64,000 bases of DNA. Origin: a virus. Both the position numbers and the translations under genes were made by a program. Positions 3,852 through 61,726 of the stretch are shown piece by piece; position 1 is the first letter of the stretch; each line of letters starts with the position of its first letter. The notes beneath the pieces were generated by a model. That model was not told where the DNA came from, made no database searches, and saw only the letters and a program-made list of their open reading frames with translations. The stretch is taken from positions 5,435 to 69,434 of the IMG/VR virus record IMGVR_UViG_3300031261_000003, one strand, 5' to 3'.

Positions 3852-3910
3852 GCGGTCGGTGGCGTCCGGCCCGCAAGAAAAAGAATACGAGATAACGAGA
3901 TAATATGCAA
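3852..3910 (-). promoter_or_regulatory. promoter TTGCAT-N17-TATTCT plus ACGCCA-loop hairpin
   Basis: -35 at 3905-3910, -10 at 3882-3887, loop 3860-3865. Confidence 0.65.
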
Positions 3911-3952
3911 GCTAATTATCAAGACAATGTGACACTTCGCACGCTTTTGTTG

Positions 3953-4225
3953 CTAGGCGTCAAACGCGGCCAGCTTGGCGGCGCGGCGCGCGTCGCGATC
4001 CGCTCGGATTTCCCTCTCAAAGCTCTTGACGTTCGCGCCGTTGAAAGCGCGAAGGCGCGTAAACGCGCGGGCCTGGGCCTGCTTGAGCGCCGACCAGTTC
4101 GCGTCTTTGTTGGCGTCCAACGTCAAGCCGTTTGCCGCCCTTGGATAGGCGTTGAGCAAAGCGCCGATCTTGCGAACGGCCAGCTTTAAGTTTTCCTGAA
4201 TCGCGAGAAAATCGGCGTAAGTCAT
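3953..4225 (-). CDS. hypothetical protein
   Basis: GGAGG RBS before ATG 4225. Confidence 0.6.
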   Translation of the reverse strand: MTYADFLAIQENLKLAVRKIGALLNAYPRAANGLTLDANKDANWSALKQAQARAFTRLRAFNGANVKSFEREIRADRDARRAAKLAAFDA

Positions 4226-4229
4226 GAGA

Positions 4230-4457
4230 TCAGCCCTCCGAGGCGACATAAACCGCGTGGTCAATCGCGGCTTTCTTGCTCTTGAAGCGACGCTTGAGAG
4301 CGTTGCCGGCCGGATGCCAGAACCAATCGGCGCCCGCGCAAGCATGCGTGATGACCGACCAAAGGACGCGCGTATCGGCGCGGCGGACAGCGATCTCAAC
4401 GGCGCCATCGCCGAGCTTGAAGGCTTGAACCGAAACGACGTTGGAACGGATCTGCAT
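4230..4457 (-). CDS. hypothetical protein
   Basis: AGGAG RBS. Confidence 0.6.
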   Translation of the reverse strand: MQIRSNVVSVQAFKLGDGAVEIAVRRADTRVLWSVITHACAGADWFWHPAGNALKRRFKSKKAAIDHAVYVASEG

Positions 4458-4465
4458 GGCGTATC

Positions 4466-4522
4466 TCCTGGGGAGTGGCGTCTCCCAGGAATAGATATAC
4501 GCGCGATTTGATTAGCTTGCAA
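4466..4522 (-). promoter_or_regulatory. promoter plus ACGCCA-loop hairpin overlapping the SD
   Basis: TCCTGGGAG-ACGCCA-CTCCCCAGGA; TTGCAA-N17-TATATC. Confidence 0.65.
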
Positions 4523-4560
4523 ACACATTCGCACATTAGCTTTATAATTAGTAATAAGGC

Positions 4561-4905
4561 TCAATACCCCATCGCTTCGGCGGAGTAATCGCGCTGCCGC
4601 CCACGGCCCCACGTCCAAGCCGGATAAGGAACGGACTCGTCAGGAAACGCGACGACGGCGAGCTGATCGAGGTTGCAGCGTCCGACTTCGCTGCGGTCCA
4701 TGTGCCCATCGCAATCGCGCGCCGAAGTGTCGCACTCGAATTGTACATGGTCACCCTCATGCGTCCAGACGCTTTGTTCGCTCCAATAACCCTCGTCGGT
4801 TCCGCCGCCCGTTCGGTGCGCAATTTCCTGCCCAGGGCGAAGCGTAAGCCTGACTGGCGAGCCGTTTATTAGGGTCCAGAATCGAGCGTTGCGAAGCTTG
4901 GTCAT
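4561..4905 (-). CDS. hypothetical phage protein
   Basis: GAGGG RBS; TDEG, RDCDG, QRDYSAE motifs. Confidence 0.7.
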   Translation of the reverse strand: MTKLRNARFWTLINGSPVRLTLRPGQEIAHRTGGGTDEGYWSEQSVWTHEGDHVQFECDTSARDCDGHMDRSEVGRCNLDQLAVVAFPDESVPYPAWTWGRGRQRDYSAEAMGY

Positions 4906-4918
4906 GTTGGGGTTTCCC

Positions 4919-5191
4919 TCAGAAGTTGAAAGCGACCTGGCGCGCGTCAACAGCGGCGCGAGCGGCGCGAACGGCGAGATAGGCGCGAGCGAGTTCGAGG
5001 CGAACGAGGCGATCCTCGGCGCGACTGGCGAGAACGGCGGCGTTGTTCTCGTCGAGTCGCGCGGCGTAGGCTTGCGCCTTGGCGTTGGTCTTGAACGCGG
5101 TGCAAACCGGCTCGTCAGCCGCGCGAAAAAACATGATCTTGCCTTCGACGGCGAAAACGTTCTTTGCGAGCTTGGTAACGGTCGAGGTCAT
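4919..5191 (-). CDS. hypothetical protein
   Basis: GGAG RBS before ATG 5191. Confidence 0.6.
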   Translation of the reverse strand: MTSTVTKLAKNVFAVEGKIMFFRAADEPVCTAFKTNAKAQAYAARLDENNAAVLASRAEDRLVRLELARAYLAVRAARAAVDARQVAFNF

Positions 5192-5211
5192 TGGCTTTTC
5201 TCCGCTTCGCT

Positions 5212-5266
5212 CGGACGTGGCGTCGTCCGGTATGTTCTTTGTAACGCGACGCGCGCAAGATAGCAA
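5212..5266 (-). promoter_or_regulatory. promoter TTGCTA-N17-TACAAA plus ACGCCA-loop hairpin
   Basis: CGGACG-ACGCCA-CGTCCG, perfect 6-bp stem. Confidence 0.7.
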
Positions 5267-5354
5267 GAGGATGTGCTAATGAAATATCACGCTATCAAAT
5301 TATTATTGGCGCCTGTCACCCAGAGCGCCCGATCCGAGCGCCCTGGGCTCTTGG

Positions 5355-5801
5355 TTAGGCGTCCTTTAAGAACGCCGCGCGAGCTTCGACGAGCCCGACG
5401 CTCAAAGCGTCGCCGCTCTGGCGATTGGCTTCGTAGGCGACCTTCGCCGCGACAAAGCGCTTAAGCGTCTCTTGAGCTTCGGCCGGAACGCCAGCGCCCC
5501 AATTTTCGAGAAACTTCGCAGCCTCGGCCGCGTCGCAATATTCGCTAAGGCCGCGCGAAACGACATGGCCCGCTTCGTCGAGATACATTGCCGCGCCGAA
5601 CTTGCAGTATGTTCCGGCTTTTGGCTTGTTCCAAACGAGCCCGGCGCGATTCGGATTCGTCGTTTGCGAGACGAGGCGGCAACCGAAGCCCGGCTTGTAT
5701 TCGATCCAATAGCGGATCGTGCAGCGAAGGCGATAGCCGTAGGGATAATCGGCGACGACGTAGGCGGTTTCTGGCGAGATATGTCCGACGAGGTTGGTCA
5801 T
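5355..5801 (-). CDS. conserved phage hypothetical protein
   Basis: H.SPETAYVV.DYPYG.RLRC..RYWIE...QTTNP..WNKPK motif. Confidence 0.75.
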   Translation of the reverse strand: MTNLVGHISPETAYVVADYPYGYRLRCTIRYWIEYKPGFGCRLVSQTTNPNRAGLVWNKPKAGTYCKFGAAMYLDEAGHVVSRGLSEYCDAAEAAKFLENWGAGVPAEAQETLKRFVAAKVAYEANRQSGDALSVGLVEARAAFLKDA

Positions 5802-5815
5802 TGGCTTGTCTCCGT

Positions 5816-5867
5816 TCGGGTGGCGTCCCGATAAAGCTAACTTAGTCGCTTGCAAACAAGATAGCAA
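5816..5867 (-). promoter_or_regulatory. promoter TTGCTA-N17-TAAGTT plus ACGCCA-loop hairpin
   Basis: TCGGG-ACGCCA-CCCGA. Confidence 0.7.
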
Positions 5868-5930
5868 GATAAAACGACAGGCTATCGCGTTTTAGCCGCG
5901 CCGGATCGCACCCGGCGCAGCGCTAACGCC

Positions 5931-6023
5931 TTACGGCAGGAAGCGGTCTACGAGTTGCGCGTAGCCAACGACGGCGAGCGCGATAGTAACGAAAGCGCAA
6001 TAGGACGTAACGGTATTGAGCAT
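5931..6023 (-). CDS. 30-aa hydrophobic peptide (not in ORF track)
   Basis: MLNTVTSYCAFVTIALAVVGYAQLVDRFLP; GGAG RBS; preceded by ACGCCA hairpin. Confidence 0.6.
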   Translation of the reverse strand: MLNTVTSYCAFVTIALAVVGYAQLVDRFLP

Positions 6024-6039
6024 TGGTTTTCTCCGGTTC

Positions 6040-6057
6040 CGGCGATGGCGTTCGCCG
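6040..6057 (-). promoter_or_regulatory. ACGCCA-loop hairpin
   Basis: CGGCGA-ACGCCA-TCGCCG, perfect 6-bp stem. Confidence 0.7.
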
Positions 6058-6145
6058 TGCTTCAAACTAGCGCTAATGTTATAACAAATTATAAAGACTA
6101 TCCATTCGCAATGTAGTTCGCTAGCGAAATAGCAAGGGCAAACGC

Positions 6146-6367
6146 ATGTCGAAGCAAGAGTCTATCGCGACCTACGCCCGGTCTTGCTTCGTCGCGTCGT
6201 CCCTCGTTATCTCGAAATGCGAATGCGGCTGTGGAAATACAAAACTGCTCCTGCTCGACAGAAAAGACCGCGTCCGCGCAACGGCGACGGCCGCGCCGGA
6301 CGATCTTATCAAGATGGCGAGAACGGCCAAGACTGACGAGCCAATGCGCATAGAGCCGCTGAACTGA
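6146..6367 (+). CDS. hypothetical protein
   Basis: AAGGG RBS; CECGC motif. Confidence 0.5.
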   Translation: MSKQESIATYARSCFVASSLVISKCECGCGNTKLLLLDRKDRVRATATAAPDDLIKMARTAKTDEPMRIEPLN

Positions 6368-6375
6368 GGTCAACA

Positions 6376-6534
6376 ATGTCGCCACTCCTTATAATCATAA
6401 TTCTCGTACTGCTCTTTGGTGTTGGCGGCGGATACTACGCGCACAACAGCTACGGTCCGCAATGGAGTGGCGGCATCGGCGTTATAGTTGTTATTGTCGT
6501 CCTGTTCCTCGTCTTTGGCGGCGGAAGACTATAG
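6376..6534 (+). CDS. DUF3309-like small two-TM membrane protein (not in ORF track)
   Basis: MSPLLIIIILVLLFGVGGGYYAHNSYGPQWSGGIGVIVVIVVLFLVFGGGRL; GAGG RBS. Confidence 0.7.
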   Translation: MSPLLIIIILVLLFGVGGGYYAHNSYGPQWSGGIGVIVVIVVLFLVFGGGRL

Positions 6535-6542
6535 GAGCCGCG

Positions 6543-7076
6543 ATGTTTTCCGACCAGCATTTGCAGGAAATGTTCTCCCGAATGGACGCCCTGTCGCGGT
6601 CGCCCTCGGCTAATTCGGCCAACCTCGACGGCCTAACTTCCCAATTGAGCGCCATCGCCGCCGCTCAAAGCGCGCAGACCGCGCTAATTCAGGCGATCAC
6701 CACCCAAGGAAACCAGCTTATGAGCGCTTTGACCGATCTGCAAACGAGCGTGGCAAGCCTGACGACGGCCGCCGCAACGCTGATCACGCTTGAGACGGCC
6801 GCCATTGCCAACGCCAGCGCCAGCGGCGACGACGCGGGCGTCGAGGCCGCAGTAACCAACATCAACAAGATCACGGCGAATCTCACCGCCGCCGGCGCCG
6901 CGCTTCCCACCGCGCCCGCCGTCGTAACACCGGCTGCCGCCACGAGCACGCTTGCGCCGACCGCCGCGCCGATCCCTGCCCCGGCTGTTGCGCCAACCCC
7001 CGCGCCGCCTACCGCCGCCGCGCCGGCTGCGGCTGCGCCGGCTGGCGCCGTTCCGCCCGCCACGCCTCACACGTAA
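6543..7076 (+). CDS. Ala/Thr/Pro-rich helical protein with possible internal start at 6720
   Basis: AGGAG RBS; internal AAGGA...ATG. Confidence 0.65.
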   Translation: MFSDQHLQEMFSRMDALSRSPSANSANLDGLTSQLSAIAAAQSAQTALIQAITTQGNQLMSALTDLQTSVASLTTAAATLITLETAAIANASASGDDAGVEAAVTNINKITANLTAAGAALPTAPAVVTPAAATSTLAPTAAPIPAPAVAPTPAPPTAAAPAAAAPAGAVPPATPHT

Positions 7077-7100
7077 TTCTAACAGGCAACGAGGCGCGCC

Positions 7101-7361
7101 ATGCTGATCGGCCGGCACTCCGCAACAACGCGAACGCTCGGCGCGCCGCCGACTTGGAATCGCAAGATCGACGGCGAGTGCGGTAGCCTGCCCGTCGCCG
7201 ATCTCATGTCGCCGTCCGGCCCAGTGATGGAGTCCGCTTGGCTTCCGAACGCCGACGAGATCGAGCGGCTCATTGCCGGCGCGCCGATCATTCTCGGCGT
7301 TCTCGGCGAGGGTCATCCGCCGGTCTATCTCGGCGTTGGGGCCGCGCCCGATGCTTTATGA
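7101..7361 (+). CDS. conserved phage hypothetical protein
   Basis: LGAP..W.....GEC..LPV, SAW.P..DE, HPPV motifs. Confidence 0.7.
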   Translation: MLIGRHSATTRTLGAPPTWNRKIDGECGSLPVADLMSPSGPVMESAWLPNADEIERLIAGAPIILGVLGEGHPPVYLGVGAAPDAL

Positions 7362-7421
7362 TCTCGCGTTCTGCGCCGCCATCGCCCTGCTGGTCGTTGT
7401 TATGACGGTCGCGGCGACCTG

Positions 7422-7988
7422 ATGGCGGCGCGCAAAGCGACGTCGCCGCGTAAAACCGCGCTAACGCCGCGCGCTGACCTCGCCGTTGTCTATCGCGATC
7501 CGCGCGAGCTTGTCGCGTATGAACGCAATGCGCGCACCCATTCACCCGCGCAAATTCTAGAAATCCAAAGCTCGATTCTTGAGTTCGGATTTACCAACCC
7601 GGTATTATTGCGCGACGAGCGAAACATCGGCGCCGGCCATGCCCGAACTTTGGCGGCCGTCGGGCTTGGCCTTGCGCGCGTTCCGACGATAACTTTGCCC
7701 GACCTGAGCGAAGCGCAATGGCGAGCCTATGTCATCGCCGATAATAAGCTGGCTTTGAACGCCTCCTGGGACGAAAGCCTGTTAAAGCTCGAATTTGGCG
7801 CGTTAAAAGACCTTGGCTTTGAGTTGACGCTAACCGGCTTTACGCTCGACGAGATCGGCGCGCTCACGCCGCTTCCAGGAACGCCGCCCGATGATTTCAA
7901 GAGCTTCGGCGACGACATTGATACTGAACACGAATGCCCGAGGTGTAAATTTAAGTGGAGCGGAAAATCGGAACCCGAATCTTCGTAG
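7422..7988 (+). CDS. ParB/Srx-like N-terminal domain protein with C-terminal CxxC
   Basis: NARTHS..QI...SI.EFGFTNPVL, AGH.R, ADNKLA, WD..LL. Confidence 0.85.
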   Translation: MAARKATSPRKTALTPRADLAVVYRDPRELVAYERNARTHSPAQILEIQSSILEFGFTNPVLLRDERNIGAGHARTLAAVGLGLARVPTITLPDLSEAQWRAYVIADNKLALNASWDESLLKLEFGALKDLGFELTLTGFTLDEIGALTPLPGTPPDDFKSFGDDIDTEHECPRCKFKWSGKSEPESS

Positions 7989-8128
7989 AAAACTTCTCAG
8001 GGTTTACGAAAGACGGCGTGAAGTTCGACGATATGGTTCACACGTTCTTTGAATGCACCAATCAGCCGATGCCGCCGATCATCGCCGGCCGCGCGATAAA
8101 ATATTTCACCGATGACAAAGGCGAGGAC

Positions 8129-9259
8129 ATGGCGCCGGAAAATAAGCCGCCTTATTGCGTACCGCTCATGTCGAAAATCGCGGCGCTGCCGTGGAATGGA
8201 TTCAAAGTCGTATCCACTTTTGCAGGCGCGGGCGGCTCCTCAACCGGCTATAGGATGGCGGGTTTCAAGGTGGCGCTCGCCAACGAATTTGTGCCGATAG
8301 CGCAAGACAGCTATCGCGCCAACATGGACCCTTCGACCGTCATTGATCCGCGCGGCATCCAAGAGGTCACAGCGGCTTCGATTCTTGAAGCTACGGGCCT
8401 CAAGGAAGGCGATCTGGACCTATTCGATGGGTCCCCGCCGTGCCAAGCCTTCTCGACCGCTGGCAAGCGCGCTAAAGGCTGGGGAACGGATCGTGCTTAC
8501 GAACACGGCGCATGCCAGAAAAACGAAGACCTGTTTCCCGAATACATTCGCGTGCTGGCGGCCCTCAAGCCGAAAGTCTTCGTCGCCGAGAACGTCTCGG
8601 GCCTTGTAAAGGGCGTCGCCAAGGGGTTTTTTCTGGAAATCCTCGCTGGCCTCAAGGCGTGCGGCTATCGCGTCGAGGCAAGAGTCCTAGACGCGCAATG
8701 GCTTGGCGTTCCGCAAATGCGCCAACGGTTGATCTTTATGGGCGTGCGAAACGACTTGGGCGCTAATCCCGTATTTCCTAAGCCGTTGACCTATCAATAT
8801 ACGGTTCGCGACGCGCTGCCTTGGATTGTGCGATGCGAGGAAATGGCAGGATACAACGGGCATCAAATGCTTGACTCGGGCAGACCTTCGCAGTCGATCT
8901 TATTGACGGGATCGCATCATTGCGAGGCGCACCTTGGAACGTTTCACGGCGACCGTTCTATTGATGACGTCGCGCCGACCGTCCAAACACACGGCCGTCC
9001 CAAGACGCTTAATGAACTGACCATCGCCAGCGGCCCGGCCGGCATCGAACGCCGCAAATTCACAATCGCCGAAGTCAAGCGAATCTGCGCCTTTCCCGAC
9101 GATTTCATTCTCAAGGGCACATACGCGCAGCAATGGGAACGACTTGGAAATTCAGTTCCGCCGGTCATGATGGCCGCCATTGCGGTAACGATCCGTGACA
9201 AAATCCTGATTCCAGCAAGAGAAAAGGCCGCGCCAGAGGTTCCGGCGCGGCTTGCCTAG
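8129..9259 (+). CDS. DNA (cytosine-5)-methyltransferase
   Basis: FAGAGG, GSPPCQ, ENV, Q.R.R, GNSV motifs; GAGGA RBS at ATG 8129. Confidence 0.95.
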   Translation: MAPENKPPYCVPLMSKIAALPWNGFKVVSTFAGAGGSSTGYRMAGFKVALANEFVPIAQDSYRANMDPSTVIDPRGIQEVTAASILEATGLKEGDLDLFDGSPPCQAFSTAGKRAKGWGTDRAYEHGACQKNEDLFPEYIRVLAALKPKVFVAENVSGLVKGVAKGFFLEILAGLKACGYRVEARVLDAQWLGVPQMRQRLIFMGVRNDLGANPVFPKPLTYQYTVRDALPWIVRCEEMAGYNGHQMLDSGRPSQSILLTGSHHCEAHLGTFHGDRSIDDVAPTVQTHGRPKTLNELTIASGPAGIERRKFTIAEVKRICAFPDDFILKGTYAQQWERLGNSVPPVMMAAIAVTIRDKILIPAREKAAPEVPARLA

Positions 9260-9260
9260 T

Positions 9261-10037
9261 TCAGCCGACTTTGTAAAAAGTCTTGCCGTCGCTTATCGTC
9301 TTGGTGACATTCAGGCCGAGTTTTTTACGAGCGATCTGTGAAATATTCCAACGACACGAGTCGAAGTTCCAACCTGTCGCGCTGGCAAGCTCCTCAATCG
9401 TTACGCCGGTTTTGCTGGATAGAAGCGAAACCATCGTGGAGATATTTGACGATCCATCGCCGCGCTTGCTGGCGGCCGTCTTGCCCTTCACGGCGGCGAC
9501 CTTGGCGACTATCGCAACCTTGGCGACTTTGCCGCCCTTGGCGCTCTTAACGGCCTTGGCAGCTTCGCTCCAAGCCTTCGCGTCGAAGGGACCCCAAACC
9601 CAATCGCCGCGCCCGGTTTTCTTGGCGAAGAAATCGACGCCCTCGGCCGCGTCTTTGCCGAAAGCTTGGCGCGCTTCGGCGAGCGCCTGCGCTTGGCTCA
9701 TGCAGTGGCCGCTTTTCGGCGTTGCCGCGCCCTTGACGACCACTTCCAAGGCAACCGCGGGTGGCGAGTCCAGTTCGGACGTCGGCAGGGCGTTCAACTC
9801 CGCGGCCGCGATCTGCTGGATGCGAGTGGCGGGCGTCTCGTCGGCCGGCGCGGCGAAAACGACGGCGAGCTTCGCGGCGGCGGAAACGCTCTGCATGGCC
9901 TCTTTCGTCTTAGCGCGGTCGGCGGCGGCCTTCGTTGCGCGCTTGGCGGCTTTGATCTCGGCGGCGGAAGCGTCGGCTTTGGCGGCGACGTCGAGAGCGT
10001 CAAAAGCGGCGGTGTTGTCGGCGGCGAGCTTGATCAT
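9261..10037 (-). CDS. Ala/Lys-rich protein with C-terminal DUF3489-like winged helix
   Basis: GVTIEEL.SATGW...CR..IS...KKLGL.V...Y motif. Confidence 0.75.
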   Translation of the reverse strand: MIKLAADNTAAFDALDVAAKADASAAEIKAAKRATKAAADRAKTKEAMQSVSAAAKLAVVFAAPADETPATRIQQIAAAELNALPTSELDSPPAVALEVVVKGAATPKSGHCMSQAQALAEARQAFGKDAAEGVDFFAKKTGRGDWVWGPFDAKAWSEAAKAVKSAKGGKVAKVAIVAKVAAVKGKTAASKRGDGSSNISTMVSLLSSKTGVTIEELASATGWNFDSCRWNISQIARKKLGLNVTKTISDGKTFYKVG

Positions 10038-10040
10038 GTT

Positions 10041-10104
10041 GGTCTCCGGTTCGGGATGGCGTTCCCGTGAGACCAGAGATAACGTTGAGAGCACAAAATC
10101 GCAA
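10041..10104 (-). promoter_or_regulatory. promoter plus ACGCCA-loop hairpin
   Basis: CGGGA-ACGCCA-TCCCG; outer GGTCTC/GAGACC arm can cover the SD; TTGCGA -35. Confidence 0.65.
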
Positions 10105-10178
10105 GCTATTTTTATCGCAAAATAGCAGATTATAACTATCGCAAGGAAGCAGGCGCAAAATCAGTATGGAGACGTAGC

Positions 10179-10691
10179 GTGACGGCACGCAAAGCGGCGG
10201 CCGATCTCTTGCCGCGCGGCCCGAAGCGCAAGCCAAGGCCGCCGCCCAATCCCAACGGCCGACCGCCGCACGAGCCGACCGAGGCCAATCGCCAGCTTGT
10301 CAAAACACTCGTCGTCGCCGGCTGGAACCGCGACCGTATCGGCGTCGCGCTCGATATCGACGCCGAGACGTTGCGCAAATATTACCGAGTAGAACTAGAC
10401 CACAGCAAAGCTATAGTTGACGCAATGGTCACACAAAGCATAATACAAATGGCCTGTGGTGGCCCTGGCGCTGGCAATTGGGAAAAAGCCGTTCCAAGTA
10501 TGGCTAGTTTTTATGCGAAATGCCGCATGAATTGGAAAGACCCTAAACTTGAGGTTAACTTATCCGGCGCTGTTGGTACTTACGATATGAGTAAAATGAG
10601 TGATGACGACTTACGGAGAGTCACGGAAATACTCAGCCGCGCCGAAATTTCCGCCCCTAACGGTGTTTCTAGCGGAGATCAGGAAACGTGA
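10179..10691 (+). CDS. terS: terminase small subunit
   Basis: GRPPHEPT, HTH, TLRKYYR.EL; directly upstream of terL. Confidence 0.75.
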   Translation: MTARKAAADLLPRGPKRKPRPPPNPNGRPPHEPTEANRQLVKTLVVAGWNRDRIGVALDIDAETLRKYYRVELDHSKAIVDAMVTQSIIQMACGGPGAGNWEKAVPSMASFYAKCRMNWKDPKLEVNLSGAVGTYDMSKMSDDDLRRVTEILSRAEISAPNGVSSGDQET

Positions 10692-12141
10692 GGCCGCGCG
10701 CCAGCTCGCCGACGTCGAGCGCAACGCCGACGCGATCCGCGCAAGATGCAAGACGTTTTCCGGCTTCGTCCGCGAGGCGTGGCACGTTCTCGAACCAACC
10801 ACGCGCTACATTCATAGTTGGCATATCGAGGCGATTTGCCAGCATTTAGAGGCTGTAACTGACCGGCGCATAACCCGGTTGCTGATCAACGTTCCACCCG
10901 GCTCGATGAAAAGCCTGCTGGTTTCAGTCCTATGGCCGGCTTGGGAATGGGGGCCAAAAGGTTTAAGATCGTTGCGCTATTTGGCGACAGCGTTCAACGA
11001 AGGGCCGGTTAAAAGAGACACGCGCAAGTCGCGCGATTTGATCCTTTCGGCTTGGTATCAAGCCTTATGGCCCGAGGTTCGGTTAGTCCGGACCGGCGAA
11101 ACGAGCTTCGCCAATTCAGACACAGGCACGCGCGAAGGCGTCGCGTTCAACTCGCTTACGTCGCAGCGCGGCGACCGTTTGATAATTGACGATCCGCATT
11201 CAATCAAAACCGCCGAGTCAGAAACCGAGCGCGAAGGCGTTACGCGCGGCTTTCGCGAAGGCGCCTTGAACCGACTTAATAATCAAGCCGAGTCGGCAAT
11301 CGTAATCATCATGCAGCGCTTGCATGAAAAGGATATTTCGGGCGTTATTCTCGCGCTCAAAATGCCGTTCGTGCATCTGCGCTTGCCGATGGAATACGAG
11401 CGCGGCAACCCTTGCACGACGCCGCTCGGCTTCGTCGATCCGCGCCAATACGAAGGCGAGCTGCTTTGTCCGGAGCGCTTTTCCGCGTCGACCATCGCGC
11501 AAATGAAAAGCGACACGACCGCCTACGCCTGGGCCGGACAGTATCAGCAACGCCCCGCCCCGCGCGAAGGCGGCATGTTCCAACGTCGTTGGTTCGGCGA
11601 GCCCGTCGCCGCCGCCCCTATATCAACTAACGTCGTAAGAGCCTGGGATTTGGCGGCAACGGAAGCGGGCGGCGATTGGACGGTGGGCTTGCGCATGTCG
11701 CGCGCTCCCAGCGGAATCTTCTATATCGAACACATTGAGCGCCTTCGCGGTTCGGCGCTCGACGTCAAGAAAGCCGTCCTAAACCTCGCCAGCGCGGCCA
11801 ATGATAGCAAGCGCGTCAAGGTCAGGCTTCCCCAAGACGTCGGCCAAGCTGGCAAAGGCCAAGTCGCGGATTATGCGCGCGATTTGGCGGGCTGGCTTTT
11901 GGACGTGGAGCGCGAAACGGGCTCCAAGGAAGTGCGCGCTGCGCCGTTCGCGGCGCAATGCGAAGCTGGAAACGTCCGACTCGTCGCCGGGCCTTGGGTT
12001 GAAACGTTTCTCAGCGAGCTAGAGACATTCCCGATGGGCGCGCACGACGATCAAGTTGACGCGGCCTCCGGCGCTTTTACGAGTCTCGTCAATCCAACGA
12101 CGCTCGCCCGTCAAGTTCCCTTCAATCTCATGGGTCGTTGA
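10600..12141 (+). CDS. terL: terminase large subunit
   Basis: NVPPGSMKS (Walker A), IIDDP (Walker B), MQRLH, WDLA, HDDQVDA. Confidence 0.95.
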   Translation: MMTTYGESRKYSAAPKFPPLTVFLAEIRKREAARQLADVERNADAIRARCKTFSGFVREAWHVLEPTTRYIHSWHIEAICQHLEAVTDRRITRLLINVPPGSMKSLLVSVLWPAWEWGPKGLRSLRYLATAFNEGPVKRDTRKSRDLILSAWYQALWPEVRLVRTGETSFANSDTGTREGVAFNSLTSQRGDRLIIDDPHSIKTAESETEREGVTRGFREGALNRLNNQAESAIVIIMQRLHEKDISGVILALKMPFVHLRLPMEYERGNPCTTPLGFVDPRQYEGELLCPERFSASTIAQMKSDTTAYAWAGQYQQRPAPREGGMFQRRWFGEPVAAAPISTNVVRAWDLAATEAGGDWTVGLRMSRAPSGIFYIEHIERLRGSALDVKKAVLNLASAANDSKRVKVRLPQDVGQAGKGQVADYARDLAGWLLDVERETGSKEVRAAPFAAQCEAGNVRLVAGPWVETFLSELETFPMGAHDDQVDAASGAFTSLVNPTTLARQVPFNLMGR

Positions 12142-54810: not shown

Positions 54811-56066
54811 GCGCGGCTCGTGGCTGGCTTCATCTTGGTTTTGGCGTGCGCGACCAGGGCGTCCACCAATTCGCGCGATAAAAGCTTGCGCTCGCCGGGC
54901 TCAAGATTGTCGAGGAAGTCGCGCAGCGCGGCGGGGCCGGCGTCGGCCCGCGCCCGGGCGGTTTGCGTCAGGTCCGCGAGCAACGCCGCGTTCGGATCGG
55001 TCGGCGCCGGGCCGGAGTCATGTTCCGTCCCGGCGCCTTCCGCCGACGCGGCGGGCCGTGATGACGCCGCGTCGGTTCCATTGGCCGCGCCGTTGCCGGC
55101 CGGCTTGTCGTTGATAGCGCCGTTTAAGCGGCCGTCCGAGGAAGCGGCGACATAATCGGCGTTGCCGTTTTTCGTAATCTCGCCCGTATCCGGATCGACC
55201 TTTTCGTTCGCGCCTACGCCGGCCATTTTGTCGAGAGCGTCGGCGAGAGACGCCGGCCGCTCGCCGGGTTTAGCCGCAACGGGGAAGGCTTCTTCGACGG
55301 TAACCTCACCGTTTTTGATCGCCGCGCGGGCGCCGTTGAGCGTCAGCAGATGGTCGAGGTTTATATCGCCTTCGCCCTGCACGCCGAGCGCTGCAAAAAC
55401 GCGATCTGGCGTAACGCCCATGACGCCGAATGCCTTGATTGCGAGCGCTCGACGACTTGAGAGCGTCTTGATATCGCCGCGTATGACCTCCTCGACAGCC
55501 GTATATCCACGACGAGCGACGCCCTTTGGAATGCCGGCCAGGATCGCGTTGCGCCGAGCAATCGAGCAAGCTGCGGCGCCGGCAAGCTGAATCATGTCGT
55601 TGTCGATTCCCTTGCCGCGCTTTTCCTGTATCGGCCGACGAACGCGAGCCACTTGAATTACATTCGTCTCCAAATCCTGAAATACGCCCTCGGCTTCCAC
55701 GTATTTTTCGATGCGGTCGACATGGACAATACGTGCCGCGACTCGGCAGTTACCCCATTGGCTCGCCATGATCTCGGCGAAACGGATCGACGGGCCTTGA
55801 ATGGTCTTTCCGCCACGCGGTAAAGCATAGATGCACTCGGCGGCGGTGTCCTCGTCGAGCGTCGCAAGCGTCGTTATCTGGTTTACGGCGCGTTGAATGC
55901 TTCGCGGCATGGCGCGAGCCGTTGCGACTTGCTGATCGACTTCGGCGCGGGCAAGGCTGACAGCTAGGCTTTGCTGCACGGCGCTCAAACCGCCGCCGCC
56001 GTCGTATCCGACAATCTCGGTCGATTCTTCCGAATTGCGGGATGGGGAAACTTGGTTGACACTCAT
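54807..56066 (-). CDS. putative recombination/annealing protein
   Basis: AEVD.QVATAR..PRS, Y.LPRGGK.I.GPSIRFAE, SIARRNAIL; same operon as YqaJ; function inferred. Confidence 0.55.
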   Translation of the reverse strand: MSVNQVSPSRNSEESTEIVGYDGGGGLSAVQQSLAVSLARAEVDQQVATARAMPRSIQRAVNQITTLATLDEDTAAECIYALPRGGKTIQGPSIRFAEIMASQWGNCRVAARIVHVDRIEKYVEAEGVFQDLETNVIQVARVRRPIQEKRGKGIDNDMIQLAGAAACSIARRNAILAGIPKGVARRGYTAVEEVIRGDIKTLSSRRALAIKAFGVMGVTPDRVFAALGVQGEGDINLDHLLTLNGARAAIKNGEVTVEEAFPVAAKPGERPASLADALDKMAGVGANEKVDPDTGEITKNGNADYVAASSDGRLNGAINDKPAGNGAANGTDAASSRPAASAEGAGTEHDSGPAPTDPNAALLADLTQTARARADAGPAALRDFLDNLEPGERKLLSRELVDALVAHAKTKMKPATSRA

Positions 56067-56147
56067 TTTGTTGCTCTTTCGGTTGCTTTGTTGCTAGCGA
56101 AATTGCTCGCTAACAATATTGCGTTATAATTAGATAATAAGCAAGCG

Positions 56148-56837
56148 CTATCCCGCGCGACGCCGCGCGAGTTCATGCTTGATGGTGAATTTGACGTCGG
56201 GGTCGAAGTCCTGGCCTTCGCCCCAGCGGAGATAGTCGGTGGGAACGTCCGTCCAAGCCATGCCGAAATGCTTGCCGAATCCGACTTTGCGCAGAACGGC
56301 GGCCTTGGTCGAAAGCCTCAACAAGTCGTCTAGGCTACGCTCCTTGAGCATTTCAACCAGAAGCGCCGTCGTCAGAACGGCGTCGAACAACGCCCGGTGA
56401 GGGGCGACTCCGCTAGGGCGAGGAAGCCCGCGCCAATAATATAGCACCGCGTTCTTGAAGCTTGGCGCCTCCGGCCAAACATGCAGAGCACAGCGATATG
56501 TATCGATCCAGCGCTTTTCTTTGAGCGTCGGCAGCATGTCGCGGTCGAAGCGGGCATTGTGCGCAGCGAGAAGGTCAACGTTTGCAGGGAGAACAAGGCC
56601 AAGCGCCTCCTCAAGGTCGGGCGCGTTGGCGACGTCCGAGTCGATAATGTGATGAACGCCCATCGCCTCGAACGAAATAGGCCGGTGCGGATTGACGAGT
56701 ATCGAGTTGGATCTGAAACCGCCAACAACGCTCCCCTCGGTCGGGTCATAAAACATCTCGACCGCCGCAATCTCAACCACTCGGTCGGTTGTGGGATCGA
56801 GGCCAGTTGTTTCAGTGTCAATGACATGGATAATCAT
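56148..56837 (-). CDS. DEDDh 3'-5' exonuclease (exonuclease X-like)
   Basis: IDTETTG, AHNARFD, HRAL.D, FGKH.G..W..VP.DYL.W. Confidence 0.9.
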   Translation of the reverse strand: MIIHVIDTETTGLDPTTDRVVEIAAVEMFYDPTEGSVVGGFRSNSILVNPHRPISFEAMGVHHIIDSDVANAPDLEEALGLVLPANVDLLAAHNARFDRDMLPTLKEKRWIDTYRCALHVWPEAPSFKNAVLYYWRGLPRPSGVAPHRALFDAVLTTALLVEMLKERSLDDLLRLSTKAAVLRKVGFGKHFGMAWTDVPTDYLRWGEGQDFDPDVKFTIKHELARRRAG

Positions 56838-57517
56838 CGGAAAGACGCCTTCGTTTCCTTGGCGATGGTCGCGCCGCGCAACCTGCGAGCATATACAGAT
56901 CGTCCGGTGACAATAAAATACACTGTAGATTTACTAACTCCGAACATGATCGCGATTTCTCTAAGAGGCGTTCCGGTCTTGGATACCTCTAAGACCTTCT
57001 CAACGTCCGCGAGTTCAAGAGCGGATGGACGACGAATCCTTCGATTGTTGCTCTGCTCTTTGTTTGTGGCCCAGCGGCAGTTTCCTGGCTCGTAGTTTCC
57101 ATCGTTATCTGGGTATCTATCAATTGAATGCTTAGGCGTAGGCTTCCGCCCCATGTCCTCCAAAAAAGTTTCAAAGCTATTTAGCCAGCGGCTACAGACC
57201 TTGATGCCGCGTCCTCCGTAACTCGTAAATTTCTTATTTGTAGGCGTAGTACATCGGCTCTTCATTCCTGCCCACGATCTGTACTCCGACGAAAACACAC
57301 CGCCTTTCGTATGGCCGTGCGTTTCGTTTGCTCCCCCATGTGTACACCCACAAGATTTTGTGTTTCCACTATTTAAAGCGGCGGCAGGAATACGTAGTCG
57401 TTTGCCACAATCGCAAATGCAGTCCCATAATATTTTTCCGCTACGCGTCCTCTCGTCTGTAGATGCTATCGCGCGCAGCTTACCGAAGCGCAACCCTGCA
57501 ATCTTCGCGGCGATCAT
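56834..57517 (-). CDS. HNH homing endonuclease-like protein
   Basis: CDCG, KSCGC, YGGRGI.VC.RW, SIDR..DNDGNYEPGNCRWAT; AT-richer than neighbours. Confidence 0.85.
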   Translation of the reverse strand: MIAAKIAGLRFGKLRAIASTDERTRSGKILWDCICDCGKRLRIPAAALNSGNTKSCGCTHGGANETHGHTKGGVFSSEYRSWAGMKSRCTTPTNKKFTSYGGRGIKVCSRWLNSFETFLEDMGRKPTPKHSIDRYPDNDGNYEPGNCRWATNKEQSNNRRIRRPSALELADVEKVLEVSKTGTPLREIAIMFGVSKSTVYFIVTGRSVYARRLRGATIAKETKASFR

Positions 57518-58284
57518 TTGAACATGGCCCGTGTGATCTGTTCGATACTTGTACCGTTGATTTTCCTTATACCCATTTTTATCGCTTGATCTAACGCCGA
57601 TTGTATTGCTTCTCGTTTTATATATGGCTTTAGGTCAGAGATATTTAGCGCGTCCCAATCGGTTATGGTTCCCTTCCAAGTGGTTCGCGCGCTCGCCAAA
57701 ACGCCGCTTTCCGTTCGCGTCCGCACGAGATCGGCGGCTTTCGCTTTGCCAGCTAGATCGGCGGCGTAGGCGGCTTCCGACGCAGCCTCGGCGGCGGTAT
57801 TGGCCGCAACCTCCTCGGCCGGCGTCGTAAAGGCCGCAAGGTCGCGCTGGCGCTGTTCTTCGGCGCGGGCGGCGTCGGCGGCGGCTTGGGCTTTTGCGCG
57901 GGCGGCGCGGTCGACTTCGCGCTGGTAGTCGTCGCCTATCGCTTGGAAGGTATCGCCGATGCGTTTTAAGCGGTCGAGGAAGACGGCGAAGAAAGATTGC
58001 ACGTCGTTGCCAGCCTGCAAATAAGGAGCCTTGGCGATCGTGCGAGCGCCGTCCGTCCGTTTCCAGAGCGCTCGCGCGTCCTTGACCAATGCGCCGACCG
58101 CATCAAGATCGGCCGGCGTCGTAATCTTTTTTGGCGCGACGTTGGCGCGAGCGGCAAGCGTCTCGACGTCGTGGCGAGTCTGCGCGCGATCCTCGGCCAA
58201 CTGCTCGCGCAGATCGCGCGGCGGGCGGTTGTCACCAATAGGCGGCGGCGGCGTGAAGTCGGTCATTTTTCCCTGCGTATTCAT
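57514..58284 (-). CDS. coiled-coil phage protein
   Basis: IGDNRPP motif, KAPYL.AG..V..FF. Confidence 0.7.
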   Translation of the reverse strand: MNTQGKMTDFTPPPPIGDNRPPRDLREQLAEDRAQTRHDVETLAARANVAPKKITTPADLDAVGALVKDARALWKRTDGARTIAKAPYLQAGNDVQSFFAVFLDRLKRIGDTFQAIGDDYQREVDRAARAKAQAAADAARAEEQRQRDLAAFTTPAEEVAANTAAEAASEAAYAADLAGKAKAADLVRTRTESGVLASARTTWKGTITDWDALNISDLKPYIKREAIQSALDQAIKMGIRKINGTSIEQITRAMFK

Positions 58285-58297
58285 GATGTTTTCTCCG

Positions 58298-58313
58298 TAG
58301 CGTGGCGTCGCTG
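58298..58313 (-). promoter_or_regulatory. ACGCCA-loop hairpin before SD
   Basis: AGCG-ACGCCA-CGCT followed by ACGGAG. Confidence 0.6.
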
Positions 58314-58372
58314 GATTGGTTACAAATTATCGTGCTATATCGCGCGCCAATTAGCAAGCGATATTGCTATCC

Positions 58373-59473
58373 TTAGAACGGGCCGGAATACGAGAGCGGC
58401 ACGGCGGCCGGCTTGGCGGCTCGCATCGCCTTCGCGCTCGCCGCGAATTGCTCTTTCACGGAAAGCTGCGGGTATTCACTCGGCGCGACCGTAAAGCCCT
58501 TGCGCCGAATGATCTTGACGCCAAAGGTCCGGCCGTCCGCGATCCGCGCCGCGCTCGCGTTGCCGAGCCGGTGGATCAACTGCGCATCGACAGGCTTTCG
58601 CGCCTTGGCGGCGGCGGCGCCATCGGCTTCGCGCGCCTTGAGCGCTTCGCGTTCGTCGAGCAGCGCCGCGACGTCCGGCGCGTCGCCAAGCTCGATGACA
58701 GGACCGTTCTCGCCGTCGTAGAGATCGCCGATCAAGTCGGCGTCACGGTTGAAATCCGGGTCATAGGGGTCGTTTTGCTCGACGCGACGCCAAAAGTCTT
58801 GGACGCGCGGCGTAAGCGCCGCCATGACGCCGGGCCGCAACGGCACTTCCTCGACCGGTTCGATCCAATCGGAGTCCATATGGTAGGCCGCAACGGCGCC
58901 CCAGGACGCGCCGCAAAGGGCGGCGGTAACGTTGACCTGAACGGCTATCCAGAGCGGGACGGCGCGATCACCGTCCGCATCTTGCCATTTCTTGCGACCT
59001 GCATATTTGCCGATGGACTTGCCGTCGAGCGCTCCGAAACCTTCCGGCCGCTCCGGATCGAAGGCGAAGAAATCCGGGCTGGCGCCGATTCGAGACGCCG
59101 GATCGCGGTAGTAGCGGCTTGCCTGGACAAACGTCCAAGTCGGATATTCCTCGCGCAGCATTTGCAGGATAACCGGTTCGATAAGCTGGCCGCGCCGCAT
59201 CGCGCGATTGCCTTTTTCCGCCTCGATGATCTTGGATTTTAGCGCCCACATTTTCAGCGGCGTCGAATACGCGCCCATTTCAACCGGGCCGTCATGGAAC
59301 AGCACGCCCGCGTTGGACGCGGTAAAATCCGGCTCTCGGCGCTTGAGCCATTCCTCGACGGAGTCGATAGGAAACCAGCAGACGCCCGGCGGAACGGCCG
59401 CGTTGACGATTTCGATAAGCTTGGCCTCGGTCATTTTACCTTGGCGTTCCGCTTGATGCGCTAACTCATCCAT
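58373..59473 (-). CDS. YqaJ/lambda-exonuclease-like nuclease
   Basis: WL.RR...TAS, RG...EP, ASPD, DGK, Q motifs. Confidence 0.85.
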   Translation of the reverse strand: MDELAHQAERQGKMTEAKLIEIVNAAVPPGVCWFPIDSVEEWLKRREPDFTASNAGVLFHDGPVEMGAYSTPLKMWALKSKIIEAEKGNRAMRRGQLIEPVILQMLREEYPTWTFVQASRYYRDPASRIGASPDFFAFDPERPEGFGALDGKSIGKYAGRKKWQDADGDRAVPLWIAVQVNVTAALCGASWGAVAAYHMDSDWIEPVEEVPLRPGVMAALTPRVQDFWRRVEQNDPYDPDFNRDADLIGDLYDGENGPVIELGDAPDVAALLDEREALKAREADGAAAAKARKPVDAQLIHRLGNASAARIADGRTFGVKIIRRKGFTVAPSEYPQLSVKEQFAASAKAMRAAKPAAVPLSYSGPF

Positions 59474-59563
59474 TTGCGATTCTCCTGCTAACTGATTGCC
59501 GCGTTATATTGCGCGCGTGTTTTCAAATTAGCAAGAGAACAAATAATCGAATTATAAAGATAA

Positions 59564-59947
59564 TCAGCGCCAGACGCGGCGCGTCGTAATCACGGCGTTT
59601 CCATAAATCAGCGGCGCTTGGCTAAGATCGTCGCCGCGCGCAAACGACGCCGCATGGTAGATTTGCGTCGCGGCCTTGTTGACGGGTTGCGGCCCGGCAT
59701 CGGGCAATCTCTCGTCGTCGAACGCCTTGCGCGGATTGATCGCGGAAAACTCGTCAACGAACATATCGGCGCGCTCGCCCTCATAAGGGACGGCTACATG
59801 CTCGATATTGTTCGGGCCGATAAAGGCGCCAATCGCCTTGTTAAGCTCGCCATAGTTGGGGTCTTTCGGAATCGAAATCCTCGCGATTTCAGGCTCGTCA
59901 ACGCCCGGATGAAAGATCAAAATATCAAGGTCTTGCATATCCTTCAT
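59564..59947 (-). CDS. hypothetical protein
   Basis: MFVDE, N..AT.IY, IYGNAV. Confidence 0.7.
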   Translation of the reverse strand: MKDMQDLDILIFHPGVDEPEIARISIPKDPNYGELNKAIGAFIGPNNIEHVAVPYEGERADMFVDEFSAINPRKAFDDERLPDAGPQPVNKAATQIYHAASFARGDDLSQAPLIYGNAVITTRRVWR

Positions 59948-60501
59948 GGCGACGCCTCGACGGTCATCTCGTAGGTTCCGCCAAGCGCTTCGGCGATATC
60001 GGCCGCGCTGTGTTCGACAGCCTCGCGCTGCGTCCGCATTTCCAACCACACGCCGTTTGCCATACTCGGCGCGGCCAGGACAAAGCCATCGATGGCATTG
60101 TAGCGGACAAGCGCGGCAATCCCTTGCTCGGCTTGGTGCTCCAAATAGGCTCGCAACGCCGGATCGCGGTGGGCGTCGGGGCGCTTGGGATCGACCCAAA
60201 CCTGCACCACTTCAATTTTTGTTTCGGCGCCGGTTTCGTTGTCAATTGCCGTAATGTAATCCGGTAAAATATCGAGGACGACGCCGGATCGATCCGGTCG
60301 CGAGAGATCGCGCGTGTCGGCCTCTTGAACGAGCCAGCGGCATGACCAAAGTTTGCAGCTATTCGGCATTGCTTGCGTCTTGTAGACGCCGCAGCCCTTG
60401 GAGAAGCTTTGATATCGGCAGCGCTCGCCCGCGCTTTTGCGTAGCTCGCGGACGGCTAAAAGCTTGCAGCAAAGGCTGCATTCGCCGCAGGTCCTGGTCA
60501 C
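59944..60501 (-). CDS. CxxCxxCC (YkgJ-like) protein
   Basis: CGECSLCCK...C...GC.VY...P..C..W.C.WL. Confidence 0.75.
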   Translation of the reverse strand: MTRTCGECSLCCKLLAVRELRKSAGERCRYQSFSKGCGVYKTQAMPNSCKLWSCRWLVQEADTRDLSRPDRSGVVLDILPDYITAIDNETGAETKIEVVQVWVDPKRPDAHRDPALRAYLEHQAEQGIAALVRYNAIDGFVLAAPSMANGVWLEMRTQREAVEHSAADIAEALGGTYEMTVEASP

Positions 60502-60722
60502 AATGGCAACCTCCCCTTTTCCGCTTCCTCGTCGGCCAGCCGCTGATATTCGTCGCGGATTTCCGCCATGATGCCGATCTGTTCGTCAGCCTGCGCCTTG
60601 GTCATTTTGCCGTTGGCGACGCGCTTCGGATAAACGAAGACTCGATATGAAACTTCGCGAGCAAGAACCCGCGCCTTTTGCGCGGCGGTGAACTTGCGCG
60701 CCTCAGTCATCGGCCGTCTCAC
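60498..60722 (-). CDS. conserved phage hypothetical protein
   Basis: RE..YR..VYP.RV..GKM...AD..I..M. Confidence 0.7.
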   Translation of the reverse strand: MRRPMTEARKFTAAQKARVLAREVSYRVFVYPKRVANGKMTKAQADEQIGIMAEIRDEYQRLADEEAEKGRLPL

Positions 60723-60933
60723 TCGTCTTGTGGCGGATGGGTTCGAACTCGTCGCGCTTAAGCCGGATATACGCGCCGACTATCGGGCATTTGGCCTCAT
60801 CGGGAAGGGCGATAAGAGCCACGACTCCCCAGGTTTTGACCTTGCTGATCAAAGCAACGCAGCCAGCCAGCTTATGCGGCGGCGCAATCTGAATGACGCT
60901 TCCCTCAACAAGCGACAACTTCCTGTCATTCAT
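60703..60933 (-). CDS. hypothetical protein
   Basis: V.QI.P, VK.WGV. Confidence 0.65.
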   Translation of the reverse strand: MNDRKLSLVEGSVIQIAPPHKLAGCVALISKVKTWGVVALIALPDEAKCPIVGAYIRLKRDEFEPIRHKTSETADD

Positions 60934-61234
60934 CGCTGGACTCCGCGCTTTCGTTGATCGAGCGCAGCACGGCCCTTGCGCTTGTGACCATAAGGATTTC
61001 GTCGCCCGGGCTGAGGAGGGCGGTGTCTATTGCCGCAATCGCCGCGAGCGTTGCGAGGAGGTTAGGAGCCGCCGCAATGGCCCGCCCATTGGCGTCGGCC
61101 TCGTCTATCGTGCGCGGACTTGGGTTGGCGTGCATAGGGCCGCCTAGCGAGACGAAGGCAATCGGCGCGCCGTGCCTTCCGAACACGTTGCCGTTGGCAT
61201 AGCGCCAAGGGCCGGCTGTGATTTGGACGCGCAT
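60926..61234 (-). CDS. hypothetical protein
   Basis: T.GPW...AN...IAAAP.LL phage motif. Confidence 0.65.
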   Translation of the reverse strand: MRVQITAGPWRYANGNVFGRHGAPIAFVSLGGPMHANPSPRTIDEADANGRAIAAAPNLLATLAAIAAIDTALLSPGDEILMVTSARAVLRSINESAESSDE

Positions 61235-61277
61235 GGGAGCCTCGGAGCCCCGGCTTTTGACCGGGGCTGGTTGGAGC

Positions 61278-61652
61278 TTAGTCGTCAACCCAATCGGACA
61301 ATCGCGAGGAATCGACGCATTCAATTAAGAGATTTTCCATCCATTCTGGGCAGTCTAGGAGATCGTGTTCAGTTGACCATTTCTTGCAAGTGTACGGGCG
61401 GATTGCCGAAATTTCGTATTGCGCGCCTTCGCCCGGCTCGTCGCGCGTCTCAACGATAGCCGGATAAGCAAGGTAAAACTCGACTTCGCACCTCAGCGGT
61501 GCGCCGCAGCCTTTGTGACCGGCGATCTCGATATCCAGCAGTCCAACGTATGTTTCGTGCCCGATAGCGCAGCGAGCGCGATAATCGCGCCTAGCGCTTT
61601 TGCGGATTTTAGCTGGGGTCAACGGCGTTTTGAACTGTGTGAGGGCGTTCAT
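61278..61652 (-). CDS. first gene of leftward early operon
   Basis: GGAG RBS. Confidence 0.6.
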   Translation of the reverse strand: MNALTQFKTPLTPAKIRKSARRDYRARCAIGHETYVGLLDIEIAGHKGCGAPLRCEVEFYLAYPAIVETRDEPGEGAQYEISAIRPYTCKKWSTEHDLLDCPEWMENLLIECVDSSRLSDWVDD

Positions 61653-61666
61653 GGTTCTCTCCAACA

Positions 61667-61726
61667 TTGACGCGAGTGGCGTCTCGTGTCAAAGAGAACT
61701 GTAAGTCACACTTACATAAATGGCAA
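61667..61726 (-). promoter_or_regulatory. PL-like promoter TTGCCA-N17-TACAGT with palindromic operator and ACGCCA hairpin
   Basis: TGTAAG-N5-CTTACA at 61700-61716; 10-bp stem 61667-61692. Confidence 0.75.

Follow-up and report, generated by a model that had tools for sequence, protein, structure and literature searches.

Translational operators, such as those read by the coat proteins of MS2 and PP7, by T4 gp43 and RegA, or by the iron regulatory protein (IRP) at the iron-responsive element (IRE), combine a fixed loop with a free stem near a ribosome-binding site, and in the IRE and RegA systems one reader serves many messages. Among antitermination signals, the boxB loops bound by the arginine-rich motif of N read GAAAA in lambda, GACAA in P22, and CUAACC in phage 21, according to the available part of PMC12550061. 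The PeSL elements of T4-type phages place a stem-loop between or over the -35 and -10 boxes, where it acts as a terminator (available text of PMC2839356), and are described as polyG/polyC stem-loops within a conserved cassette of roughly 100 bp (excerpts of PMC2839356 and PMC4122927). In Cluster K mycobacteriophages, the SAS is an asymmetric 13-bp linear word that contains the Shine-Dalgarno sequence (SD; AGGAG) and lies 3-7 bp before the start codon, and the related ESAS inverted repeats are conserved in sequence, with little support for RNA pairing seen by the authors (PMC3203893). Here we describe eight hairpins with different stems and an invariant ACGCCA hexaloop, which precede leftward genes of the phage in IMG/VR virus record IMGVR_UViG_3300031261_000003. 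The stretch analyzed, hereafter the window, comprises 64,000 nucleotides (bases 5435-69434 of a single 69,434-bp contig), and coordinates are those of the window unless marked "genome."

The eight plus-strand TGGCGT sites named in the original prediction (3860, 4476, 5218, 5821, 6046, 10057, 58303, and 61677) do form the loops of inverted repeats, and on the minus strand, which is the mRNA sense, every loop reads as the hexamer ACGCCA. Hairpin 1 (3852..3874; loop 3860-3865) has 3 Watson-Crick bp, then A.C, then 2 bp. Hairpin 2 (4471..4486; loop 4476-4481) has a 5-bp stem (GGGAG/CUCCC) with an outer extension that can reach the SD; hairpin 3 (5212..5229; loop 5218-5223) has 6 bp (CGGACG/CGUCCG); and hairpin 4 (5816..5831; loop 5821-5826), which precedes a conserved 148-aa gene, has 5 bp (UCGGG/CCCGA). 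The next two are hairpin 5 (6040..6057; loop 6046-6051), with 6 bp (CGGCGA/UCGCCG), and hairpin 6 (10052..10067; loop 10057-10062), with 5 bp (CGGGA/UCCCG). Far to the right, hairpin 7 (58299..58312; loop 58303-58308) has 4 bp (AGCG/CGCU), and hairpin 8 (61667..61692; loop 61677-61682) has 4 bp, then A.C, then 5 bp, and follows a P_L-like promoter, ahead of the first gene next to a CI-like repressor gene.

Across the whole 69,434-bp genome, ACGCCA is enclosed by a stem of at least 3 bp at 8 of 48 minus-strand occurrences (7 of 48 for at least 4 bp) and at 2 of 31 plus-strand occurrences (1 of 31 for at least 4 bp). Both strands together thus hold 8 such hairpins with stems of at least 4 bp, whereas 300 dinucleotide-preserving shuffles gave 0.26 on average and never more than 3. 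No loop is commoner than ACGCCA among the approximately 400 hexaloop hairpins on each strand, with 7 cases versus at most 3 for any other; the commonest hexaloop in 60 shuffles reached a mean of 3.4 and a maximum of 5. The stems differ yet stay complementary, as had been claimed: all 5 stem pairs change on both sides among the 8 copies, and in an ungapped alignment of the copies, which are paralogous, 92.5% of cells were paired, versus 53.3% after shuffling (0 of 500 shuffles reached 92.5%) and 33-48% with slid partners. Because all eight copies sit in one genome, this covariation is among copies, not orthologs. The stems and flanks have fully diverged, with a mean column identity of 48% over nine cassettes, while the loop is invariant at 6 of 6 positions in 8 of 8 copies and the closing pair is always purine-pyrimidine (R-Y; G-C in six, A-U in two, pyrimidine-purine in none; P 0.004).

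A covariance model built from the eight copies scored its members at 21.1 to 24.7 bits (21.1, 24.7, 23.9, 24.1, 23.6, 23.4, 21.6, and 22.2 bits for hairpins 1 to 8) and the rest of the genome at 14 bits or less; given this gap, the eight-member set is complete and sharply bounded. The shuffles, the covariation, the score gap, and the R-Y closing pair together bear out the proposal that structure plus loop are under selection. That no named motif matches also held, as Rfam 15 gave no match in the window at gathering thresholds, and a search of region 2900-6200 at E up to 10 placed nothing on the hairpins. Literature searches, which did not extend to supplements, found no paper describing an ACGCCA hairpin motif. 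Three other readings, namely a sigma-54 box, a methylase site, and 16S complementarity, were weighed by eye and set aside.

The placement of the hairpins is equally regular. Six sites (3860, 4476, 5218, 5821, 10057, and 61677) have a TTGC-N17-TAnnnn box whose end lies 6-9 nt upstream of the hairpin base, in agreement with the prediction that these hairpins start near a +1. The boxes, all on the minus strand, are TTGCAT-N17-TATTCT at 3882..3910 (hairpin 1), TTGCAA-N17-TATATC at 4494..4522 (hairpin 2), TTGCTA-N17-TACAAA at 5238..5266 (hairpin 3), TTGCTA-N17-TAAGTT at 5839..5867 (hairpin 4), TTGCGA-N17-TATCTC at 10076..10104 (hairpin 6), and TTGCCA-N17-TACAGT at 61698..61726 (hairpin 8); no clear box precedes hairpins 5 and 7, at 6046 and 58303. 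A seventh promoter-like element of this form, TTGCTA-N17-TAAGAT at 3067..3095 on the same strand, belongs to a stemless ACGCCA (3055..3060, minus), which lies 6 nt past the -10 box (TAAGAT) and is followed 14 nt later by the ATG of a DUF6874 gene encoding 92 aa, consistent with the earlier assignment of this copy to a predicted +1. Downstream of all eight hairpins the predicted order of SD and ATG was found, with GGAGA (GAGA at 3860) 2-8 nt beyond the hairpin and the ATG 18-27 nt past the loop.

From these boxes we infer a transcription start at the base of the hairpin or no more than about 2 nt from it. As judged from gene order, the hairpin marks transcription units, that is, the 5' ends of predicted primary transcripts, and not cistrons, because the hairpin is missing from all 8 operon-internal genes of the left arm that lack a promoter box of their own. 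None of the rightward gene starts examined has an ACGCCA leader hairpin. The hairpin dominates the fold of the predicted leaders, with its loop unpaired at P of at least 0.97. The suggestion that two hairpins can occlude the SD applies to 4476 and 10057 only, and there only if a few extra 5' bases beyond the predicted +1 are transcribed; apart from such longer transcripts at these two sites, the SD is not buried by the hairpin itself.

The reading that we tentatively prefer, although our confidence in it stops somewhat short of the midpoint, is that of a translational operator regulon built on a protective 5'-terminal mRNA hairpin and read by a lineage-specific factor. Sigma-70-like, host-type TTGC-N17-TAnnnn leftward promoters would yield transcripts that begin with a cis-acting RNA hairpin, and with the start placed at the base of the hairpin, the initial 14-26 nt of the message would fold at once. 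Stem-loops at the 5' terminus protect bacterial messages from 5'-end-dependent decay, and the paired 5' end would shield these messages likewise. Since R-ACGCCA-Y is invariant, the fixed loop and its R-Y closing pair would be where a sequence-specific factor docks in trans, and this factor would most likely be an RNA-binding protein encoded by the phage; that other lineages fix other loops (see below) makes a phage-encoded, co-evolving reader more likely than a host factor. With the hairpin 2-8 nt before the SD, the bound factor would sit within the 30S footprint and could tune, probably shut off, the translation of the promoter-proximal genes co-ordinately, with a logic like that of IRE/IRP- or RegA-type translational operator regulons. 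The post-transcriptional regulon of the original prediction is therefore retained in part: selection and the promoter-proximal position (itself deduced from promoter boxes) speak for it, whereas no reader, protein or UGGCGU RNA, was found. If a phage factor does read the loop, a compact RNA-protein (or RNA-RNA) pair would switch the genes of eight promoters together, and the system would represent a new post-transcriptional regulon in a temperate phage and possibly an orthogonal part for synthetic biology.

Hairpins in the same layout, with other fixed loops, were found in contigs whose loci share only the 148-aa gene with this phage. In contig L010 (533-4576), 7 of 27 gene-strand ATGGC words are pentaloops on seven different stems of 5-9 bp, each followed by a ribosome site, GAAAGGGA or GAGAGGG, and an ATG, and one stands directly before the 148-aa homologue. 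In contigs L079 and L012 (2070-3634), all four TTCGCAG words are hairpin loops before AAGGAGATC and an ATG, the 148-aa homologue included, and at an orthologous site the two contigs have the same loop on different stems, GCCCU and UCACG. Because a looser survey showed three-fold repeats of 4-5 nt loops to be common background, we rely on the ATGGC and TTCGCAG cases only. The L010 locus also has a larger hairpin and a CTTAAGG word upstream of its ATGGC hairpins.

The ACGCCA cassettes are probably one instance of a wider, undescribed phage habit. A stronger generalization, which we regard as possible but doubtful, is that many tailed phages tag the 5' ends of their early mRNAs with a private hairpin code (ACGCCA, AUGGC, UUCGCAG), and that a phage factor co-evolving with the code reads it and so tells phage mRNA from host mRNA, whether for protection, for control of translation, or for timing; if true, this would be a further level of gene control, widespread among phages and so far undescribed. 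The recurrence of this layout, with other loops, in unrelated contigs suggests that a general principle is at work, one that would have escaped description because lineage-private loops are invisible to homology searches.

Conservation in relatives is accordingly split, in that the layout recurs with other loops in contigs carrying the 148-aa gene but the ACGCCA loop was in no outside sequence examined. The whole genome of Ralstonia phage Albius, 30 upstream regions of 148-aa homologues, and 80 metagenome loci (276,758 bases) held no ACGCCA leader hairpin, and 80 loci around capsid homologues (925,206 bases) held no leader-like one. In 80 IMG/VR loci around 148-aa homologues (453,832 bases), a stem of at least 4 bp flanked 2 of 365 ACGCCA words, neither of them in a leader. 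Fifteen bacterial-genome loci were scanned for repeated-loop hairpins generally, not for the ACGCCA loop. The covariance model, run over 1,085,057 bases outside the phage, reached 19.3 bits at best. The pattern GACGCCAC..GGAGA..ATG matched at least 117 stretches in IMG/VR, and among the matches listed the stems were of 1, 2, 3, and 4 bp in 83, 26, 5, and 3 cases, as by chance.

Phages that share genes with this one were compared in addition. Homologues of the DUF6874 gene in Pseudomonas Yuavirus phages stand behind a different promoter cassette, with no ACGCCA. Pseudomonas phage vB_PaeS_S218, at 2580-5170, carries a near-identical promoter cassette, GGGGCTTTACTTCTTCGGG..CACTATACT, before three genes, and the stem-loop of that cassette covers the -35 box and spacer, as in PeSLs. 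Microcystis phage Mae-JY30 (PP438422.1) has three early genes in common with the phage but not the hairpin. The gene order held in common, at 6000-18000 of Mae-JY30, is RecE-like, 256-aa, and 418-aa, and in Mae-JY30 the word GATTGATTG (or GATTGAT) recurs about 13-25 nt before at least six start codons.

The first open reading frames (ORFs) behind the hairpins encode, in site order, 71, 75, 90, 148, 30, 258, 256, and 124 aa, and four of those scanned had no PHROG or Pfam match (the 30-aa ORF was outside the scan). All are on the minus strand. The 71-aa (3617..3832), 75-aa (4230..4457), and 90-aa (4919..5191) genes that follow hairpins 1, 2, and 3 belong to no family. Hairpin 4 leads the 148-aa gene (5355..5801), a member of a large conserved family: phage contigs from soil and peat carry over 840 homologues, 60-70% identical, and the best non-self homologue among 5.8 billion proteins is 70% identical. 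The model of the 148-aa protein is confident (predicted local distance difference test [pLDDT], 94), but it belongs to no Pfam or PHROG family and has no clear match among solved structures (Foldseek best E, 0.26; VIA wide best Z, 3.6), and it is thus a conserved phage protein of unknown function. A 30-aa hydrophobic ORF, a putative gene (5931..6023), lies after hairpin 5, and a 258-aa gene with a DUF3489 C terminus (9261..10037) lies after hairpin 6 and is itself followed by a strong terminator-like hairpin at 9251-9227. The 256-aa gene (phrog_10477; 57514..58284) after hairpin 7 adjoins a RecE-like exonuclease gene. Behind hairpin 8, where lambda N would sit, is a 124-aa ORFan (61278..61652) with the arginine-rich stretch TPAKIRKSARRDYRAR; the protein is acidic overall (net -6) and has no homologues, its Atlas matches scoring 0.87 or less and bearing no names. 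In two hairpin-led units the first gene is directly followed, on the minus strand, by a GC-rich hairpin that lacks a U tract, GGCGGCC-CGCGCAA-GGCCGCC at 3566-3616 and AGCCCCGG-TCAAAAG-CCGGGGCT at 61235-61277; these two hairpins may be attenuators.

The 24 runs listed for this phage are all of peat metagenome DNA, with no RNA run among them. Contigs from 4 runs over 2700-10200 represent the same phage, with zero listed differences at the hairpins under low and patchy coverage. The plus strand encodes large terminase, portal, scaffold, major capsid, baseplate wedge, and endolysin, a gene content that identifies the genome as that of a tailed phage, and its capsid protein is 63% identical to that of Ralstonia phages (genus Rahariannevirus) and 50% identical to that of Komagataeibacter phages. 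The phage looks temperate or plasmid-like from its genes: a CI-like repressor gene (61846-about 62490, minus) faces a Cro-like gene (62577-62828, plus), and ParA, a serine recombinase, a RecE-like exonuclease, TnpB, and an IS1595 transposase were identified through PHROGs and Pfam. A TPR-GT41 (O-GlcNAc-transferase-like) gene, TnpB (IS605 OrfB), and the IS1595 transposase lie at 43641-45575, 46753-47916, and 49742-50659. The leftward genes form two arms, at 713-6376 plus 9261-10037 and at about 54400-61652. A tRNA scan found none, megablast of 20000-44000 and a comparison of the capsid protein with plasmids each returned zero matches, and single-protein scans gave no close relatives for the 256-aa, 258-aa, and RecE-like proteins.

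The window also holds further promoters. At the divergent immunity promoters (62490-62580), a leftward TTGCGT-N16-TATAAT box overlaps a TGGCGT word, and 6 nt separate the rightward TTGCAA-N17-TTACAA box from the ATG of the Cro-like gene, a distance that suggests a leaderless message for this gene. Two leftward promoters without the ACGCCA hairpin occupy 59474-59560 and 56067-56140 (minus); the leader of the second contains a TAGCGA-GCAATT-TCGCTA hairpin, with a CGCG-CGGCGT-CGCG hairpin immediately upstream. These two promoters may constitute a different temporal class.

Several observations weigh against a translational operator regulon. All start sites were inferred from promoter boxes, and the phage is uncultured. 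A search for the reader found none; the 124-aa protein and other first genes are ORFans, and the AF2 model of the 124-aa protein was unusable (pLDDT, 43). Conservation of the ACGCCA motif cannot be shown because no other examined sequence carries it. The leftward promoters before 59473 and 56066, both TTGCT(A/T)-N17-CAATAT, have no ACGCCA hairpin, and at 3055 the hexamer persists with no stem around it. Short leaders may by themselves account for the small distance between hairpin and SD. Finally, at 4 of 8 sites the first non-Watson-Crick position beside the stem is A.C on the mRNA, and hence G.T on the plus strand, and no site has G.U there; the original prediction was correct in describing the imperfect pairs as G-T on the plus strand, and the bias is mildly significant (P about 0.03).

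Of the alternatives, antitermination of the lambda nut/boxB type, in which a nascent-RNA hairpin binds an N-like arginine-rich protein and renders RNA polymerase resistant to termination through the early blocks, is in our view unlikely, although the setting of hairpin 8 invites it. That hairpin occupies the nutL position, past a P_L-like promoter and beside the CI-like repressor and Cro-like genes, and the first gene beyond it is the arginine-rich 124-aa ORFan, followed by a GC-rich 8-bp hairpin and RecE-like recombination genes; however, the acidity of the 124-aa protein and its lack of homologues do not recommend it as an N. One hairpin per transcription unit would also suit antitermination, but six of the units lie in tandem within 3 kb and have only 1-3 genes each, and terminator-like sites are not enriched (14 versus 15.7 expected in 1-11000; 30 versus 29.6 in 44001-64000). 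A hexaloop boxB has a precedent in CUAACC of phage 21 (available part of PMC12550061), but the ACGCCA loop is by its sequence neither GNRA-like nor UMAC, and the leaders share no boxA-like word by eye, with none common to them between hairpin and SD. A ninth ACGCCA-loop hairpin does occur on the plus strand at genome 2431, outside the window and within the rightward operon, yet it has a C-G closing pair and scores 11.4 bits, and no canonical hairpin lies near the start of that operon.

It is likewise improbable that the functional fold is on the plus strand, whether as single-stranded or cruciform DNA at the promoter (a hairpin-binding or nicking site, or a point of cassette shuffling) or as an antisense RNA. 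The G.T bias described above speaks for such a fold, as does the finding that, at 6 of 8 sites, the fold of the plus strand is as good as or better than that of the minus strand; on the other hand, A.C pairs can form in RNA, and all eight hairpins share the gene orientation and a constant place between -10 box and SD, neither of which a DNA site would need. The phage has several HNH nucleases, a serine recombinase, and TnpB, but Pfam and PHROGs showed neither an integron integrase nor an HUH enzyme, and a giant virion RNA polymerase of the N4 kind is absent (longest ORF, 1090 aa; no RNA polymerase match in PHROGs or Pfam). Stems of 4-6 bp are, moreover, short for cruciform extrusion. With respect to shuffling, tandem cassettes of promoter, hairpin, and small ORFan recall the PeSLs as outlined in the available text of PMC2839356, and between L079 and L012 the hairpin before the same gene was swapped with its loop kept. 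The PeSL-like alternative raised in the original prediction is partly apt: it fits in so far as cassettes are concerned, but the hairpin lies past the -10 box, and the copies, at 48% mean column identity, have little sequence in common for homologous exchange.

A single trans-acting small RNA (sRNA) with an exposed UGGCGU loop, which would silence or activate all eight leaders by loop-loop kissing, appears quite improbable. Antisense kissing systems use six-base loop complementarity, and a candidate loop exists: on the minus strand at genome 2431-2436, outside the window, GCAC-UGGCGU-GUGC lies within a longer stem, in a 171-nt stretch that folds at -75.7 kcal/mol (z -4.2) among ORFs without a coding GC pattern, and is followed by a 12-bp stem and a U-rich run. 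One extra ACGCCA-loop hairpin is, however, within chance (0.26 expected), and the plus strand of the stretch folds equally well (z -4.0). By eye, the minus strand has no convincing upstream promoter and its U run is 5 nt from the stem, and the stretch has no Rfam match.

Around this locus, genome 1900-2690 in the rightward operon comprises about 800 nt whose ORFs have no coding GC1/GC2/GC3 pattern. It folds at z about -4 on both strands over genome 2310-2480, holds a 13-bp perfect inverted repeat and TTATTAGAAAC twice, and may be a non-coding RNA or an origin.

Very unlikely, too, is a reader-less 5' stabilizer or insulator whose loop is fixed through recent cassette copying or structural preference: 5'-terminal stem-loops stabilize bacterial and phage messages without a reader and the hairpin begins at the predicted +1, but the invariance of all six loop bases and of the R-Y closing pair in 8 of 8 copies with fully diverged stems and flanks, the other loops fixed in other lineages, and the fact that ACGCCA is not, to our knowledge, an extra-stable loop leave the fixed loop unexplained.

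Compared with described systems, the ACGCCA cassettes resemble PeSLs, as far as the available text on those elements goes, in joining an AT-rich region, a sigma-70-like promoter, a stem-loop, an SD, and an ATG before small ORFans in a tandem early array; they differ in that the hairpin lies 6-9 nt past the -10 box, has no U tract, and conserves only the loop. Like the SAS and ESAS, they are a phage-private motif repeated in one orientation shortly before many non-structural gene starts, but here the pairing covaries and the conserved word is a loop 18-27 nt before the ATG. The hairpin promoters of N4 are template-strand DNA hairpins with a 3-nt loop, unlike the 6-nt loop seen here. With boxB, in the partial account cited, the hairpins share small size (4-6 bp stem, 5-6 nt loop), a place in early leaders, and a lineage-specific loop, whereas the present set has eight copies, all leftward and each at a predicted +1, with no boxA, no terminator excess, and no N homologue found. 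Unlike known translational operators, the ACGCCA element occurs once per promoter and not once per regulated cistron; what it shares with them in geometry is a hairpin 2-8 nt before the SD. Promoter/leader-hairpin cassettes are a known kind of element, of which the ACGCCA form is new.

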